A stretch of DNA of 64,000 nt from a virus. A program made the position numbers and the translations under genes. The stretch is from the IMG/VR virus record IMGVR_UViG_3300050821_017626, positions 1-64,000 of that record; one strand, given 5' to 3'. A model generated the notes under the pieces. The model was not told the DNA's origin. It saw only the letters and a program-made list of their open reading frames with translations, and did not search any database. Below are positions 2,830-46,689 of the stretch, piece after piece. The number at the start of each line of letters is the position of its first letter. The first letter of the stretch is position 1.

Positions 2830-2859
2830 AGTATACTCGGGCAAGGGGCGGTTTGTTAA
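2830..2859 (-). promoter_or_regulatory. TTAACA-N17-GTATACT promoter (copy 1 of 5)
   Basis: Same motif and spacing in five intergenic positions. Confidence 0.75.
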
Positions 2860-6584: not shown

Positions 6585-6853
6585 AGTTTGCTAGTTATGA
6601 TTTCGCACAGATCGAGAGCGGTTCGGAGTTTCAATCCGCATTGCGTGTAAACCCAGCGATTTTCTGGGTCGGCTTCAACCAGTCGGCCACATTCAGCCAG
6701 AATATCCGTTAACATCTTTCGGTTATCCGCAGCGGTTCCCGGAAACCAGGGACTGGATTTCAGCGCCTCGTCCCAGTTGGGCTCTTTGGATTTCTTTGCA
6801 GGGCTTGTCCATTCGATTGGCGCATCCAAACCTGCCCTGTCTTTAGCCATCAA
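6581..6853 (-). CDS. Hypothetical protein
   Basis: Start/stop overlaps with both neighbours. Confidence 0.6.
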   Translation of the reverse strand: MMAKDRAGLDAPIEWTSPAKKSKEPNWDEALKSSPWFPGTAADNRKMLTDILAECGRLVEADPENRWVYTQCGLKLRTALDLCEIITSKL

Positions 6854-7065
6854 TTAACCTTGTTCGAAAACACGTCGTCAATGACAATGATCTTGTGAAA
6901 GAACACTTCCGACCCCGGATATTCGCTGGCCCACCGCTTCGCGGCTTCTTGGCTTTCAAATACGGGCGCCAGCCAATCAGGCGCGATGTCGCCCTTTTCG
7001 AGGGCGGTGTTTTTCACAAAGTGGCTCACGAAATACAAAATCTTCTCTGATCTATGATTGGGCAT
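6850..7065 (-). CDS. Hypothetical protein (start probably 7065, not 7407)
   Basis: The upstream part of the track ORF crosses a terminator and structured RNA. Confidence 0.45.
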   Translation of the reverse strand: MPNHRSEKILYFVSHFVKNTALEKGDIAPDWLAPVFESQEAAKRWASEYPGSEVFFHKIIVIDDVFSNKVN

Positions 7066-7083
7066 GTTGAATTTTAAAAGGAT

Positions 7084-7107
7084 GGCAAGAGCCCGAAGGC
7101 TCTTGCC
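7084..7107 (-). terminator. Intrinsic terminator with UUCG tetraloop
   Basis: GGCAAGAGCC-TTCG-GGCTCTTGCC followed by ATCCTTTT. Confidence 0.75.
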
Positions 7108-7151
7108 GCAAGAAGGCATTGGTAATGTTCCACGCTCTCGGTTGCCCGAGA

Positions 7152-7210
7152 AGAGAAGCGGAGGGATCGAACCTCCCCGGCGTATCCGCCGCTGAGCCAT
7201 TAGACTTCTC
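7152..7210 (-). ncRNA. Miniature tRNA-like module (not a canonical tRNA)
   Basis: Acceptor GAGAAGT/GCTTCTC and T-arm GGAGG-TTCGATC-CCTCC. The central hairpin has only a 4-nt loop and there is no proper D-stem. Confidence 0.55.
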
Positions 7211-7291
7211 AAAAGGTGACAGGTATTTCTGGCAAAATACCTGCCAAGATGAAGTTGAGTAGATCGTTCGTCCCCCCGTCTTGGCACGGGA

Positions 7292-7426
7292 GGGGCGGCT
7301 GTTGGACTCGAACCAACTATTTTATTTCCCGGAACACCGGCTGTTGAAGCGCCCCCAGCCGGGAGGAAAGCGTTCCTTCTTTCACTGCGATCCGGTAAGC
7401 ATGTCACCCGCCACGCTGAACCGCCC
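7292..7426 (-). ncRNA. Expanded tRNA-like module (135 nt)
   Basis: 8-bp acceptor GGGCGGTT/AGCCGCCC, D-like stem GCGTG/CATGC and T-arm GTTGG-TTCGAGT-CCAAC. A branched insert closed by CCGGA/TCCGG occupies the anticodon position. Confidence 0.6.
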
Positions 7427-7590
7427 AGGGTTCCGGTTTAACGAGAACCGGCAACGAGTTTGTAAGGAGCTTTCTTCTCACAGTGTGGCATAGTTATTCG
7501 CGCCCATACTAACCCAACGGGTTATAACGCTACACGTTCTATCCCTGTTTTCCGCCAGGACGTGACCCTGGTTGCCAACTGCTGATGAGC

Positions 7591-7992
7591 CTAGAAACGA
7601 GGGCTCAAGAAATCATACCTGACACCAACAACGTATCGATCTGCGTTCAAGGAGTAGCGGCGTTCCCAATAGGTGTATGCCACCATGCCGCCGTAGATAG
7701 GGTGCTCGACCCCGAGATTGAACTTGTTCTCTTTGTCGAACGGGAACTTGTTGTCGGTCTGATACTGTCCCTTGAAGAAGATGCTGAACTTCTCCCATGC
7801 ATTGTTCAGTTTCAGGTTACCCACGACCATCGGCGAGTTATCCTGCGGCCGATCCGGGTGAACGAGGTTCGTCTCCAGGCCGAGCGAACCGCTGAACCAG
7901 CGGGTACCTTGCTGGCCTTCGGCTACTGCAGGGCGCGGTGCCTGCAAGTTGAGCGATAGAAGCACTGCGGTAATGATAAAAACGTAACGCAC
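7591..7992 (-). CDS. Secreted, outer-membrane beta-barrel-like protein
   Basis: Signal peptide, amphipathic aromatic strands (VGVRYDF) and a terminal Phe. Confidence 0.5.
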   Translation of the reverse strand: MRYVFIITAVLLSLNLQAPRPAVAEGQQGTRWFSGSLGLETNLVHPDRPQDNSPMVVGNLKLNNAWEKFSIFFKGQYQTDNKFPFDKENKFNLGVEHPIYGGMVAYTYWERRYSLNADRYVVGVRYDFLSPRF

Positions 7993-8024
7993 TTGTTTCT
8001 CCTATTTGAAGCGTGTCTATTTAT

Positions 8025-8054
8025 AGTATACTGGCCGGATGACCAGGATGTTAA
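8025..8054 (-). promoter_or_regulatory. TTAACA-N17-GTATACT promoter (copy 2)
   Basis: Exact motif upstream of 7992. Confidence 0.75.
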
Positions 8055-11750: not shown

Positions 11751-12431
11751 TTACCAACTCATGATGTCATGATTTCGATGGGCCTGACCCCAAAGCTGTT
11801 TGTCAATCCATTCTTGCTCTGTTGTGACCTTGGGCTTCGGGTTGATGTCGCGCTCGATCTCTTTGCGGGACCAAGGGACATACGAATCCTCATAGACTGA
11901 GGCTTCCAGGTCGCAGTAACAGTAGGCCATGGCGTCGGCGCAGTCGGGGCTTTTGCCCGTCCGTTTCTTGATCTCATCCTTAGCTTCCAACTGAATGAGT
12001 CCGACCCGATTGAACCAACGGGGTGTGCAGAGCTGCCCAATTAATTCATCGTCGCGAGGCAAAGTAATCTCGGTTTCATTCCTCGGGTCGAGGCAGTCCC
12101 TGAGATTCCAGTACGCGTAACTGCGCATATTGCGAAATCCAAGGAGACCAGTGGAATCTTTTCGCTCGCAACGGGCATTACCATGGAAGGGAATGACTGG
12201 AAGCCCTTTGTCTCGTAGGATATCCAGCACGCCAGCGCCATAACCACCGTCGCAATCGATGATAATGGCGTCGAAGCGGTATCGGTTGTGGTGTTGGATA
12301 ACCCTGCCAGCGGATTCGAGCGAGTCGGCCTTGCTCCACTTATCCATGACGAGGAATTTCATGTCCTCGCGACCATATAGAACGCTTTTATCCACTCCCT
12401 CTCGGGCGATGTCGACTCCCGCGACCCTCAT
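11751..12431 (-). CDS. Terminase large subunit, C-terminal nuclease domain only
   Basis: GVDIAREGVD, IIDCDGGYGAGVLD, FRNMRS and KRTGKSPDCADA (RNase H-fold TerL nuclease); no ATPase motifs. Confidence 0.85.
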   Translation of the reverse strand: MRVAGVDIAREGVDKSVLYGREDMKFLVMDKWSKADSLESAGRVIQHHNRYRFDAIIIDCDGGYGAGVLDILRDKGLPVIPFHGNARCERKDSTGLLGFRNMRSYAYWNLRDCLDPRNETEITLPRDDELIGQLCTPRWFNRVGLIQLEAKDEIKKRTGKSPDCADAMAYCYCDLEASVYEDSYVPWSRKEIERDINPKPKVTTEQEWIDKQLWGQAHRNHDIMSW

Positions 12432-13672: not shown

Positions 13673-13702
13673 AGTATACGTCGCCAGGCGCCGACTTGTT
13701 AA
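13673..13702 (-). promoter_or_regulatory. TTAACA-N17-GTATACT promoter (copy 3)
   Basis: Exact motif heading the operon that contains the TerL nuclease gene. Confidence 0.75.
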
Positions 13703-13963: not shown

Positions 13964-15742
13964 ATGAGCCGCAACCGCTTCCGAGACCCGGAGAAGACCC
14001 TTGCCCGGTACGACGAACAAGATAGTCAAAAACACCGACCCCTTGCTGGGCGCATTGCCGCTCTCTACGAGCGGGTCTCCGGTGATCGCCAGGCCAAAGA
14101 AGCCAGCATCGAAACTCAAGATTCCTACCTCCGGCAATACTGTCAACACCACGACATCTTCATCTATGACACCTATAAGGACGATCCCGCCAAGAGCGAG
14201 GTCCCAATGGCCGAGCGTGCTGAAGGCCACCGACTGATCGAGGATGCCAAGAGAGACTGTTTCGATCTGGTCTTGGTCCACAGTATTTGCCGCTGGAGTC
14301 GCTACCCCGATGTCTACAAACAGGCACAGGGAACGATGCACAAACTGGGCATCGATCTCGACTGCCCCTCCGAGCATCTCTCCTGGGATTCCCCCGGTGA
14401 ATCCTTCGCCTCCGATGTCCGACTGCGAAGCAGTCAGTTGGTCCGCGATATCATCGACAAGGCTACCAGCGACGGGAAGTATACTTGGGCCGCAAAGGGA
14501 GCCGCTCTCGGAGCTGCGCCCCACTATGGCTATCTTCCCATCCCTGCCCCCGAGTGGGGGAAGAATCGAAAGCGGCTCGTTATCGATGAGCAAGAAGCGG
14601 CTATCATCCGGCGGATCTTCGATCTCCTTGTTCGTCAGCGACTGAGCTGCCGGCAGATTGCGGCTCTCTTCAACCAAGAAGGCGTCCCTTTGCCCAGCGC
14701 GTCTCCGAAATGGGATGGCTTCCGCAATCATGTTTCCGCACGAAAATGCCAGGGCCGCTGGTCGGCCTCTCGCGTCAGCCAGATTGTCCGCGACCGACTG
14801 TTTCTCGGGCAGTGTCTCTACGGAGGAACAGACCAGCGCCGCCCAGTTCTCCGTTTGGTCCCGGCAATCATCGATGCCGAGACGTTCGCGCTGGCGCAAC
14901 TGCGTTTAGCGGAGAATTCAAAACGCTCCAGTCGCAACTCCAAGCGGTGCTATCTGCTTTCCGGCAAACTGCGCTGTGCCACCTGCAACGCGGCTTATAC
15001 CGGCGTCACCGAGAACAATGGGACCAAGGCCAAGGCGCGCGGATGGACGCCGCGCCCCATCTACCGTTGCCAAGGATACCAGCGTAAGTTCGATGGCCAA
15101 GACACCCAGTGTCCCTTCTATCGCTTGCCTGCAGTTGCGCTCGAAGACGATCTGTGGGAAACCCTCGTGAACTACCTCGAACATTACGAGGATCGTCTCA
15201 CCGAACTGCGCGATGAATGGCGCAACGATAGTCAGTCCAGAGGCCGCGCTGCCTGTCAGCGAGACGAACTCTTCCGGCGCCAGCGACGACTTGAAGAGGA
15301 AGAGACGGACGCTCTCCGGGGCAAGAGCCGCCTCGGCTTCGACCTGACCCGCGAGCAAGCCCGACAGATCCTGGATACGGTTCGGGAGGAGAAGAAGCAA
15401 CTAGACATTAAAATCTCTGAACTGGATGCGCTGTTGCTTCATCTCGACCAGCGGCAAGCCCATGTGGAAACTGCCGAGGAGTACATCGAACGATACCGGG
15501 CGAACATTCGCGAGGTGCTTGACCCCAAGATGCGCCAGGAGATCGTCGCGGTGTTCCTCGAATCTGCGCTTGTCAAACCGGGTCCTTCTGGCGAGTGTCT
15601 GGTTACTTACCGGTTCTACACGCACGAGGCACTCTCCGAGCACACATCAATAGCGAAAGCAGGGTCAAGACCTCGCTTTATCAATTGGTGTGTGGAAGTG
15701 GTGCGCATATTGCTCTACGGTAGACAAAGGACCAAGGGATGA
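13964..15742 (+). CDS. Large serine recombinase (integrase-type)
   Basis: YERVS catalytic serine, PHYGY, recombinase domain, YLLSGKLRCATC..YRC Zn ribbon and coiled coil. Confidence 0.9.
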   Translation: MSRNRFRDPEKTLARYDEQDSQKHRPLAGRIAALYERVSGDRQAKEASIETQDSYLRQYCQHHDIFIYDTYKDDPAKSEVPMAERAEGHRLIEDAKRDCFDLVLVHSICRWSRYPDVYKQAQGTMHKLGIDLDCPSEHLSWDSPGESFASDVRLRSSQLVRDIIDKATSDGKYTWAAKGAALGAAPHYGYLPIPAPEWGKNRKRLVIDEQEAAIIRRIFDLLVRQRLSCRQIAALFNQEGVPLPSASPKWDGFRNHVSARKCQGRWSASRVSQIVRDRLFLGQCLYGGTDQRRPVLRLVPAIIDAETFALAQLRLAENSKRSSRNSKRCYLLSGKLRCATCNAAYTGVTENNGTKAKARGWTPRPIYRCQGYQRKFDGQDTQCPFYRLPAVALEDDLWETLVNYLEHYEDRLTELRDEWRNDSQSRGRAACQRDELFRRQRRLEEEETDALRGKSRLGFDLTREQARQILDTVREEKKQLDIKISELDALLLHLDQRQAHVETAEEYIERYRANIREVLDPKMRQEIVAVFLESALVKPGPSGECLVTYRFYTHEALSEHTSIAKAGSRPRFINWCVEVVRILLYGRQRTKG

Positions 15743-23599: not shown

Positions 23600-24442
23600 A
23601 TGAGTGATGTAGTGTTGCATTTCAAAGATGAAACTTCGCAAGAATGTAAGAGCGTGTGCCATGCAATTGCCTTTTCAATGTTCTATGACGAGGAAAAGAT
23701 TGTCGACCGGATTGAACTGAAGGGCGAGCGGGTGTTTCCCGAGGGAGTGAAACCAGAGTACTGGCCACGTTATTGGGATCAGTGGGCAACGGCGGGGATG
23801 GGGCAGGGATTGGGTCGGAGCAAGTTTTTGCAGGAGAAGAAACGGATGATGGAACAGTATGCGCGGACGGAAGAGGAGGAATTGGCGGCGCTGGATGCCA
23901 GTATCGCGGAGCTTGAGGGACGGAAGCAGACGCCGGTCAATCGGAAAAGCTCGCTCATCATCTCGGCGCTTATGACTTCTTCCTCGATTGAGGAGGCGGC
24001 GGCGAAGGCGAAGGTGTCGGGAAAAACCGTGAGCACGCTGTTGCGGGACCCGGATTTCCAGCGGGAATATTATGCGGCACAGAAGATGACGACGGCGCAC
24101 GTCGTGATCTATCTCAAGAATATGTTTGGGGATGTGGTGCAGCGGCTTTATGAGATCCTGTGCAATGAAAGCCATGCGGTGAGTGCTCGGGTGCAGGCGG
24201 CAGGGTTGCTGATGCGGTATTCGTTTGAGATGATTCAGCGGGACGTGGACGAAAAATTCAAAGAGGAAATCCGCTACTTTATAGCTGAGATCAAGGCGCG
24301 CCAGCTAGGTCAGGGTCAGGTTCCTACAATGAAATTAATGGCGCTGGCGGAGGCGGGCGATGAAGAGGCGGAGTTCTATGGGGAAGCGATGGTAGCGGAG
24401 GTGGATAGTAGCGAAGGGATAGGTGGAGGGGTGGGCAGTTGA
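23600..24442 (+). CDS. Terminase small subunit (HTH-type)
   Basis: HTH SIEEAAAKAKVSGKTVSTLLRDPDF, ARVQAA, and overlap with the TerL start. Confidence 0.65.
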   Translation: MSDVVLHFKDETSQECKSVCHAIAFSMFYDEEKIVDRIELKGERVFPEGVKPEYWPRYWDQWATAGMGQGLGRSKFLQEKKRMMEQYARTEEEELAALDASIAELEGRKQTPVNRKSSLIISALMTSSSIEEAAAKAKVSGKTVSTLLRDPDFQREYYAAQKMTTAHVVIYLKNMFGDVVQRLYEILCNESHAVSARVQAAGLLMRYSFEMIQRDVDEKFKEEIRYFIAEIKARQLGQGQVPTMKLMALAEAGDEEAEFYGEAMVAEVDSSEGIGGGVGS

Positions 24443-25431
24443 AGCTCACGCTGAATGATCTGGATGTGAGTAAGCCGTCCGATGTTTTGGGGGTGCTGCA
24501 GGCGGAAAAGAAGCGTAAAGATTTATTGCGGGAGTTGAAGCTGGAGTTGCAGGCTGCTTCGACAACGGATTTTTCTGACTTTCAGAAGACAGGTCTCAGG
24601 ATTTTCAAGCGGCCGGATATATTTGCCAGGGAATATGTCAGGTGGCCAGAGGGAGAGAAGCTTACTGCCTATCAGGAGGAGCTTCTACTCGCTATTCCCA
24701 CCAAAGAGCGTATCGCGGTGCGGGGGCCGCGCGGGCTCGGAAAGTCCTGTCTCGCCGCCCTGGCAGTGCTCTGGTTCTGCCTGAGTCGTGAGAGTCTGGG
24801 GGTCGATTACAAGTGTATTATTACAGCCGGTTCAGCAAATCAGCTTCGTAGGTACCTTTTCCCGGAGATACGCAAGTGGGCACTTCGCCTCGATTTCGAT
24901 AAGATCGGCAGGCCAAAGTTCTGCGAACGGAGCGAGCTGCTCAAAGATGCACTACAGATGTCACACGGCGAGGCGTTTTGCGTGAGTCCCGATCAGCCGT
25001 CCTTGCTGGAAGGGCTTCATGCCTCCGAAGTGCTGGTCGTGATCGATGAGGCAAAGACGGTGTGTGACGAGATATTTCACAGCGTTGAGGGCTTCTTCTC
25101 ATCGGCGGGAAAAGACAGCGGCAAACATGCCTTCGCCATTGCGATTTCAACACCATCAATCCCAGTGGGAATGTTCTATCGGCTGCACAGGCGAGAGCCT
25201 GGATTGACCCACTGGCACGCGAGGCATGTCAAATTGGATGAGGCCCTGGCCGCAGGGACGATTACCCAGGAGTATGTTGATCGGCTGGCGGCGCAGTTTG
25301 GCAAGGATTCGTCCTTCTTCCAGCAGCAGGTGCTGGGCGAATTTGCGGCAGATGATGACAGCGGAATTATCTCCTTAGATTGGATACTAAGGGCGTGTGA
25401 TCGATACGAAGAGGAATTAGAGAATGCTTGA
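24439..25431 (+). CDS. Terminase large subunit, N-terminal ATPase domain only
   Basis: Walker A RGPRGLGKS, Walker B VVIDEA, coupling motif ISTP and VLGEF. It stops at IISLDWILRACDRYEEELENA, before the nuclease domain. Confidence 0.88.
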   Translation: MKLTLNDLDVSKPSDVLGVLQAEKKRKDLLRELKLELQAASTTDFSDFQKTGLRIFKRPDIFAREYVRWPEGEKLTAYQEELLLAIPTKERIAVRGPRGLGKSCLAALAVLWFCLSRESLGVDYKCIITAGSANQLRRYLFPEIRKWALRLDFDKIGRPKFCERSELLKDALQMSHGEAFCVSPDQPSLLEGLHASEVLVVIDEAKTVCDEIFHSVEGFFSSAGKDSGKHAFAIAISTPSIPVGMFYRLHRREPGLTHWHARHVKLDEALAAGTITQEYVDRLAAQFGKDSSFFQQQVLGEFAADDDSGIISLDWILRACDRYEEELENA

Positions 25432-37043: not shown

Positions 37044-37096
37044 CCCCTTTCGCCCATCGCTGGGCTCATCAGTACCCGACTAGCCGGGTAGAGGGG
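37044..37096 (-). ncRNA. Type III hammerhead ribozyme (HHR-B)
   Basis: CCCCU-C^-UACCCGG(CUAG)UCGGGUA-CUGAUGA-GCCCA(GCGA)UGGGC-GAAA-GGGG; all core nucleotides and three stems present. Confidence 0.92.
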
Positions 37097-37288
37097 TCAC
37101 CGCTCCCGTAAGAGCGGTGAGGTGATGTATACATTGACGGTGGAGCCGTATTGGTCGCGAGTGGGCTCCAATTCAACAGTGACGACTTCAACAGGGTCGA
37201 CGCGGTGAGGGAACTTGATAACTTCCGAGTCGATCATGGTCCCCAGCCGACCGTCGAAGGTGATGAGTTTCCCGAATACATACTTCAT
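37097..37288 (-). CDS. 63-aa protein enclosed by two hammerheads
   Basis: ATG at 37288, 9 nt after AAAGGGG; the stop codon abuts HHR-B. Confidence 0.65.
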   Translation of the reverse strand: MKYVFGKLITFDGRLGTMIDSEVIKFPHRVDPVEVVTVELEPTRDQYGSTVNVYITSPLLRER

Positions 37289-37297
37289 GGTGTCGTT

Positions 37298-37349
37298 CCC
37301 CTTTCGGCTGTCGCCAGCCATCATCAGCGAGCGCTATTGCTCGGAGGGG
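37298..37349 (-). ncRNA. Type III hammerhead ribozyme (HHR-A)
   Basis: CCCCU-C^-CGAGC(AAUAGC)GCUCG-CUGAUGA-U-GGCUG(GCGA)CAGCC-GAAA-GGGG; one extra U after A9. Confidence 0.88.
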
Positions 37350-38008: not shown

Positions 38009-38065
38009 GTGCCTTGCTCTTCGTTATACGCGGGCTTGCAACCGCCGTCGGCCGAGTTAAGGCGC
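38009..38065 (-). ncRNA. Type P1 twister ribozyme
   Basis: GCCU-U^AA-CUCG-GC-CGACG-GCGG-UUGCAAGC-CCGC-GUAUAA-CGAA-GAGCA-AGGC. P1, P2, P4 and both pseudoknots (UGC/GCA, GC/GC) can be formed. Confidence 0.82.
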
Positions 38066-46659: not shown

Positions 46660-46689
46660 AGTATACGCCCTTGTCCTGCGCTTTGTTAA
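46660..46689 (-). promoter_or_regulatory. TTAACA-N17-GTATACT promoter (copy 5)
   Basis: Exact motif, intergenic. Confidence 0.75.

Follow-up and report, generated by a model that had tools for sequence, protein, structure and literature searches.

Two tRNA-like modules without an anticodon loop in a gene-free gap of a T4-type phage: candidate signals for host tRNA-processing enzymes

What does a gene-free stretch of 525 nucleotides (nt) do within the replication and transcription genes of a phage, and why does it carry two shapes that resemble the top half of a tRNA? The stretch, hereafter the gap, lies at positions 7066-7590 on the minus strand of the IMG/VR virus contig IMGVR_UViG_3300050821_017626 (96,261 bp; estimated completeness, 79%), the first 64 kb of which made up the window analyzed here. 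Its bounds are the stop codon of a gene for a protein of 133 amino acids (aa) and ATG 7065 of a gene for a 71-aa protein. The portal protein of the contig was assigned to the T4 gp20 family PF07230, which places this uncultured virus among the T4-type phages. A preliminary description of the DNA had singled out positions 7084-7590, a span slightly narrower than the gene-free gap, and had read it as one ornate RNA of about 500 nt, a member or relative of the GOLLD/ROOL class built around two anticodon-less tRNA shapes that serve as processing signals or decoys. Its observations were partly confirmed and its interpretation was partly supported. Both tRNA top-half shapes are beyond chance and neither is a decoding tRNA, and a pair of modular units, arranged in tandem in an mRNA tail, fits the results better than one ornate 500-nt RNA.

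In both modules, the acceptor and T stems are fully paired, the T-arm motif GGTTCRANYCC is present with the G53-C61 pair and a UUCRA T-loop, GG occurs in the D-like region, and G is found at +1 and U at -1. The stem sequences themselves are unrelated between the modules. Module 1 (7426-7292) contains a D-like hairpin of 6 bp with GG in its 8-nt loop, followed, in place of an anticodon arm, by a 67-nt branched three-way arm with the closing pairs CCGGA/UCCGG. After an A-rich variable stretch of 11 nt come the T-arm, GUUGG-UUCGAGU-CCAAC, and the discriminator, C. The interior of module 2 (7210-7152) is shorter and consists of 12 nt of single strand with GG and a 5-bp hairpin with the loop GAUA; its T-arm, GGAGG-UUCGAUC-CCUCC, likewise has a 5-bp stem, and its discriminator is U. 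An anticodon loop of 7 nt and an encoded CCA are missing from both modules. These features had been described before for a 135-nt module with an 8-bp acceptor and a branched insert and for a 59-nt module of acceptor plus T-arm, and both reading and folding of the sequence bore them out.

To count such shapes, we scanned for a 5-bp T stem with the G53-C61 pair and a TTCRANN loop, adjacent to a 7/7 acceptor with at least six Watson-Crick pairs. Exactly two sites were found in the 96-kb contig, modules 1 and 2, 141 nt apart on the same strand, which is the coding strand of the operon. Three hundred random genomes contained an average of 0.03 sites each; at least two sites were found in 0.3% of them, and a clustered pair was never seen. 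A looser scan, in which any 5-bp stem and G-U pairs were allowed and the acceptor partner could lie anywhere within 200 nt, was not significant. The motif GGTTCRANYCC occurs three times in the window, and the third copy is inside a gene and without a stem.

We compared the modules with known RNA families. No Rfam family reached its gathering score in the window, and a permissive scan of positions 6700-8000 (E ≤ 10) returned tRNA-Sec (RF01852) on both T-arm modules and otherwise only chance-level matches. The tRNA-Sec scores were 20.2 bits for module 2 and 17.1 bits for module 1, far below the gathering score of 47. ARAGORN found no tRNA genes in the 96-kb contig and, at default thresholds, no tmRNA; there was no match to the Rfam tRNA model RF00005 in the contig at E ≤ 10 and none to an Rfam tmRNA model in the window. 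Both the covariance-model scan and the tRNA caller had been proposed in the preliminary description. Y RNA models likewise had no match in the window, and a Y RNA assignment was rejected on the absence of a TROVE (Ro60) domain from the contig.

For a canonical tRNA, we looked for at least 29 bits against RF00005 and a 5-bp anticodon stem with a 7-nt loop; module 1 has its branched arm at this place and module 2 no anticodon arm at all. A tRNA containing an intron was also tried for module 1 and rejected: each way of joining the loop ends puts C, not U, at position 33, and neither an 8-bp acceptor nor a 6-bp D stem suits such a tRNA. Bacterial tRNA-Sec has an 8+5 acceptor/T helix and a 6-bp D stem. 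Module 1 shares these proportions, as well as the string CUUCAA, and tRNA-Sec was the best-scoring Rfam family for both modules. In addition to a score of at least 47 bits, a tRNA-Sec should have UCA in a 7-nt loop, whereas the CUUCAA of module 1 is found in a 12-nt loop closed by 7 bp. What both modules do have is GGTTCRANYCC in a 5-bp stem with a 7-nt loop, stacked on an acceptor-like helix. This is the structure of plant mitochondrial t-elements and other tRNA top-half mimics, which form a structural class and not a homology family.

The modules are set in two parallel units (Table 1), each composed of a hairpin, a 6-nt leader, the module, a 16-nt hairpin, a 28-nt single strand, and a long hairpin followed by CCUUUU. 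The tails after the two modules are weakly alike (43% identity; z, 2.2; P, ~0.02 to 0.04), which is a hint, no more, of an old tandem duplication. Hairpin C with its CCUUUU resembles a weak terminator. The GCCAAG loop of hairpin B, the GNRA hairpin, and the UUCG terminator were all found as previously described. The loop is complementary to CUUGGC at 7248-7243, and this pairing would compete with 4 nt of hairpin C. Antisense matches of the 28-nt single strands elsewhere in the contig did not exceed 11 nt, the level expected by chance.

Table 1. Elements of the gap and its flanks in 5'-to-3' order on the minus strand (coordinates verified by script), with z scores of folding against shuffled sequences
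Feature	Position	Strand	Description	Folding z
Promoter-like site	8054-8025	-	TTAACA-N18-TATACT; directly upstream of 133-aa gene	
133-aa gene	7591-7992	-	AGGAG Shine-Dalgarno; signal-peptide-like N terminus; C-terminal Phe; codon log-odds +0.22	
5' segment	7590-7452	-	139 nt; non-coding; structure no better than shuffles	-0.96 (7590-7450; 34/200 shuffles fold as well)
Hairpin A	7451-7433	-	CCGGUU...AACCGG, by folding	
Leader 1	7432-7427	-	AACCCU, 6 nt, ending in U(-1) before module 1	
Module 1	7426-7292	-	135 nt, tRNA-like; acceptor GGGCGGUU/AGCCGCCC, 8 bp	-1.70
Hairpin B	7290-7275	-	16 nt; loop GCCAAG	
Single strand 1	7274-7247	-	28 nt	
Hairpin C	7246-7217	-	13-bp stem; loop GCCA	-2.71 (spacer with hairpin C)
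Leader 2	7216-7211	-	CCUUUU, ending in U(-1) before module 2	
Module 2	7210-7152	-	59 nt, tRNA-like; acceptor GAGAAGU/GCUUCUC, 7 bp	-1.97
Hairpin D	7151-7136	-	16 nt; GNRA loop GCAA; begins directly after discriminator of module 2	
Single strand 2	7135-7108	-	28 nt	
Intrinsic terminator	7107-7075	-	10-bp G+C-rich stem with UUCG loop (7107-7084), then U run AUCCUUUU	-4.70 (3' part with terminator/GNRA, 7080-7150)
71-aa gene	6850-7065	-	Starts at ATG 7065; codon log-odds +0.18	

The gap is non-coding. In a codon log-odds model trained on 19 long genes of the contig, real genes score between +0.06 and +0.33, whereas each of the six frames of the gap scores negative. A 185-aa open reading frame (ORF) across part of it arises from an N-terminal extension, which scored -0.21. 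A search with this ORF against 1.84 billion protein representatives gave two matches, neither of which is a genuine protein relative. The first was the 89-aa gene call that forms its own C terminus. The second (P0041), a predicted "protein" of 1,658 aa, is an ORF that runs through a tandem tRNA array and carries GSTPP repeats; GSTPP is the translation of GGTTCGA.TCC, which explains its match to the translated T-arm of module 2. Since the matches come down to the ORF's own gene call and a tRNA array and every frame is negative, a protein-coding reading was ruled out, in agreement with the preliminary description. At the protein level, the likeness to tRNA is the only echo of the gap.

A promoter-like site lies directly upstream of the 133-aa gene. 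In the form TTAACA-N17-GTATACT, it recurs at four minus-strand sites in the window (2830-2859, 8025-8054, 13673-13702, and 46660-46689), and a looser version of the pattern has five matches against 0.5 expected, a number reached in 0 of 100 shuffles. Judged from this recurrence, the TTAACA motif probably marks one promoter class of the phage. No such promoter was found between the gap and the downstream genes for the 71-aa protein, a 90-aa protein, the clamp, the sigma factor, and the helicase, and these genes probably rely on read-through of the terminator or on phage-sigma promoters. Because the promoter is located at 8054-8025 and none intervenes between the gap and the downstream genes, the modules are placed in the tail of one mRNA; possibly, they lie between two blocks of a longer one. 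The 133-aa protein looks like a small outer-membrane beta-barrel, judging from its look-alikes in the ESM Atlas (Phage_OMP, KdgM, and PagL, all small outer-membrane beta-barrels), which we take as a lead only. With a promoter and a terminator of its own, the gene looks like a moron-type cassette.

The explanation that we favor, with evenly divided confidence, is that the two mimics draw cuts by the RNase P and RNase Z of the host, in analogy to the t-elements of plant mitochondria or to rnaC of T4. On a tRNA, the features recognized by RNase P, RNase Z, TrmA, TruB, and the CCA-adding enzyme are the coaxial helix of acceptor and T stem, the T-loop, and its GG-bearing elbow partner. A transcript starting at the TTAACA/TATACT promoter would encode the small outer-membrane-type protein, carry the gap as its untranslated tail, and end, at least in part, at the terminator. 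In this tail, the mimics would offer an acceptor/T-arm helix and a T-loop/GG elbow to the tRNA-maturation enzymes. RNase P would cut 5' of G7426 and G7210, and RNase Z or exonucleases would trim after C7292 and U7152, after which addition of CCA and modification of the T-loop may come next. We propose these positions because the parts retained by the modules are those that the enzymes read and because t-elements, YrlA RNAs, and T4 rnaC provide precedents; the G at +1 and the U at -1 of both modules are compatible with such cutting. The message would be split into hairpin-capped pieces, and stable tRNA-shaped RNAs of about 135 and 59 nt would be freed, along with two tails of about 80 nt consisting of a hairpin, a single strand, and a terminator. 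A hairpin would thus stand at the start or the end of each cut product, in keeping with the constant distances at which the flanking hairpins are placed. The freed RNAs might act as decoys or small RNAs. Transcription of the gap, the cuts, and any role of the products are what we infer from the layout and the precedents.

Several observations weigh against this explanation. The folding z scores of the modules are modest, -1.7 and -2.0, and come from a single sequence. A hairpin begins 0 to 1 nt past each discriminator and may hinder trimming of the 3' end. A single t-element would suffice to punctuate a message, and processing leaves the second module and the extra hairpins unexplained. Since the contig contains no other element of this kind, there is no genome-wide punctuation system. 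Finally, none of our searches found a homologue of the gap.

These searches took several routes. The portal protein has relatives at 86% identity and, on contigs of 100 to 120 kb, at about 50%; the comparisons left out the contig with the 86%-identical portal and a second contig with near-identical proteins. Comparison of positions 7000-7650 with 50,697 phage records, T4 included, by blastn gave only a 31-nt chance match in a tail gene, and the exact T-arm and acceptor strings matched nothing in IMG/VR. The genes that flank the gap had no relative above 30% identity among 5.8 billion proteins. Nor did the beta clamp have any above 30% identity, and the 17 distant clamp loci that were found carry only ordinary tRNA-Arg genes. 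The SNF2 helicase, used as a search anchor, yielded no relatives; the 133-aa protein fell into its own cluster only, with nothing in metagenome contigs. Searches of IMG/VR and JGI metagenomes for the spacing patterns of two T-loops recovered tRNA arrays, tRNA pairs of rRNA operons, and Y-RNA-like units, but no relative of the gap.

Two relatives recovered through the portal, G001 (54% identity) and G002 (39%; a complete genome), contain no similar DNA, no clamp homologue, and no tRNA-like module by the strict scan. A marginal 47-nt fold of acceptor plus T-arm is found in G002 (IMGVR_UViG_3300036861_001106), a complete phage of 109.5 kb, at 108012-108058 on the minus strand. It reads GCCGUG, 12 nt, CCGGG-UUCGACU-CCCGG, A, CACGGC, with six of seven acceptor pairs formed, and lies at the junction of two predicted ORFs. 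This fold could be due to chance.

T4 rnaC is the closest parallel to module 1. It is a stable RNA of 139 nt without an encoded CCA, in which the T-arm CCGGG-UUCGAAU-CCCGG joins an acceptor-like helix of seven positions and inserted hairpins occupy the place of an anticodon arm. Both RNAs come from T4-type phages and have the same frame of acceptor and canonical T-arm around inserts, at a length of roughly 135 to 140 nt. However, the acceptor of module 1 has 8 bp and its D-like stem 6 bp, and its sequence is not similar to that of T4 rnaC, with no blastn match in the phage collection. The units of the gap follow a protein gene, whereas eight real tRNA genes form the cluster at whose end rnaC and rnaD (the species 1 and 2 stable RNAs) stand; our contig has no tRNA cluster. 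We know of no function for rnaC or rnaD.

Plant mitochondrial t-elements are tRNA-like folds with GGTTCRANYCC in the leaders and trailers of mRNAs, where cuts by RNase P and RNase Z set the mRNA ends and sometimes release stable RNAs (Forner et al., 2007; PMC1920247). Both modules have the same motif and, likewise, sit in an mRNA tail. The t-elements are organellar and their cleavage has been mapped, whereas the modules of the gap are phage-borne, their cuts are predicted, and they are framed by hairpins and followed by a terminator-like tail.

A third parallel is the tRNA-like module of YrlA RNA, which RNase P cleaves and to which CCA and tRNA-type modifications are added (Chen et al., 2014; PMC4201824). 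YrlA is a tRNA mimic with T and D features, as are the modules of the gap. Its genes adjoin that of Ro60 (rsr), which has no counterpart in our contig. A loop closes the acceptor-like stem of YrlA, whose ends exit on the side of the anticodon stem, whereas the ends of the gap modules exit through the acceptor, as in tRNA. Putative permuted tRNA mimics, similar in type to YrlA (Y RNA), turned up in metagenome contigs L043 (1134-1295), L048 (1870-2022), L053 (7014-7165), L062 (548-708), L064 (1082-1234), and L065 (1315-1455), and also in L049, L059, and L061. In these units, a T-arm precedes a loop-closed, acceptor-like hairpin, which is followed by a canonical D-arm (GCUCAGUUGGUAGAGC). The majority adjoin tRNA genes, such as tRNA-Gln, and ARAGORN calls none of the units.

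Could the modules be decaying relics of two phage tRNA genes, or of tRNA genes captured along with the outer-membrane-protein moron, with no present function? We consider this unlikely. Phages of the T4 type often carry tRNA clusters, of which none is left in the contig, and the unit of promoter, gene, and terminator has the look of an acquired cassette. The 5' third of the gap lacks structure, and none of the relatives, including the contigs with 54% and 39% portal identity, has anything alike. Decay, however, should strike all stems, yet every pair of the acceptor, D-like, and T stems is intact, as is every invariant of the T-loop. The anticodon region alone has been replaced, and by well-paired inserts, with both modules held in the same hairpin frame. 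Moreover, in 185,579 species genomes, no tRNA gene matched the 3' half of either module.

A role as decoys or sponges, in which excised mimics titrate a host factor that reads the elbow or the acceptor, is distinctly unlikely by our estimate, although as a downstream role it would be compatible with cutting by RNase P and RNase Z. The target might be a tRNA-directed defense nuclease, a toxin acting on the acceptor end, or an enzyme that modifies or repairs tRNA. Two different mimics made from a strong early-type promoter would suit such a role, and they retain exactly what readers of the elbow and the acceptor need. Immune systems are known to act by cutting the 3' tails of tRNAs (PMC12851939), and this speaks for the decoy proposal. 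On the other hand, anticodon nucleases cannot be decoyed by RNAs without an anticodon loop, and no gene for RNA repair, Ro60, or CCA addition was found in the contig.

A related arrangement, to which we assign a similarly small likelihood, is a cassette of two units in which the mimics would be handles for RNase P and RNase Z that free a small RNA composed of hairpin, 28-nt strand, and terminator, while the mimics themselves would sponge a host factor, possibly an immune effector, that recognizes tRNA by its elbow or its acceptor end. Such a cassette would be the phage equivalent of MALAT1-mascRNA or of the tRNA-linked small RNAs of the herpesvirus MHV68.

More doubtful still is the reading as a single ornate RNA, about 500 nt long and distantly related to GOLLD and ROOL, with the tRNA elbows as parts of one fold. 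The gap does fold well as a whole, at -203.1 kcal/mol (z, -3.81), with 0 of 100 shuffles as stable. Its minus strand is 17 kcal/mol more stable than its plus strand (-203 versus -186.5 kcal/mol), and it ranks third of 183 GC-corrected windows. GNRA and UUCG tetraloops are present, and the loop GCCAAG could pair with the CUUGGC strand. The z score of the whole gap is nevertheless carried mainly by the terminator/GNRA part and the 13-bp hairpin. The 5' third is not distinctly structured (z, -0.96). In this part, the preliminary description had placed a multibranch domain closed by GGCAAC/GUUGCC. Both strings are present, at 7576-7571 and 7456-7451, but the helix between them is missing from the minimum-energy folds of both the segment and the whole gap. 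Because the folding signal is local and that of the 5' segment is so weak, the domain is unsupported as a distinct structure. The predicted long-range closing helices also differ between whole-gap and local folds. GOLLD and ROOL RNAs, often found beside tRNA genes in phages or prophages (an association that is typical but not strictly defining), likewise occupy long non-coding stretches of phage DNA. The gap differs in having no neighboring tRNA genes, no sign of a single large fold, and no match to these models at E ≤ 10 in 6700-8000 under permissive filters or at E ≤ 0.05 across the window; nor did any other large-RNA model match at E ≤ 10. Membership in this class, or kinship with it, is thus not borne out by the covariance models or by the surroundings of the gap.

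That the gap is an attP integration site with copies of host tRNA 3' ends is extremely improbable and was rejected on the absence of the exact 3' halves from the tRNA genes of the species genomes (their single exact match lies inside a protein-coding stretch): although phages often integrate at tRNA genes and an integrase-family protein, phrog_95, is encoded at 13964-15742, that gene is 6.4 kb away and both acceptor strands are present, not the 3' halves alone.

The replication and transcription block around the gap encodes a Sak4-like annealing protein, an SNF2 helicase, a sigma factor, a beta clamp, an RNase H, an MT-A70 methylase, and a second sigma factor. In the recorded gene calls, the gene downstream of the gap begins at ATG 7119 and encodes 89 aa, so that the 10-bp terminator hairpin falls within the frame. 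ATG 7065, just past the terminator, is the more likely start; a clear Shine-Dalgarno sequence is absent at both. Elsewhere in the contig, the two halves of a large terminase, one at 24439-25431 (plus strand) and the other at 11751-12431 (minus strand), are about 12 kb apart; one is its ATPase part and the other its nuclease part. The integrase-family protein (592 aa, plus strand) sits between them. The only Rfam match with E ≤ 0.05 in the window is a type-P1 twister ribozyme (RF03160) at 38011-38063 on the minus strand, which at 37.5 bits (E, 1.5e-4 for the window as a whole) is below its gathering score of 67.2. At 37044-37349, no hammerhead ribozyme was matched at E ≤ 1.

At present, the locus is one orphan sequence, of a kind already known from tRNA top-half mimics in transcripts and from T4 rnaC-like RNAs. 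It is compact, with two different mimics per transcript at a fixed spacing to the flanking hairpins. Because the phage encodes no real tRNA (none was found in the contig), a processing signal of this type would be readable without interference. If the cuts predicted for RNase P and RNase Z occur, the gap would give RNAs of the T4 rnaC type a second setting and would be another case of a bacterial virus borrowing the tRNA-trimming machinery of its host to shape its own messages.

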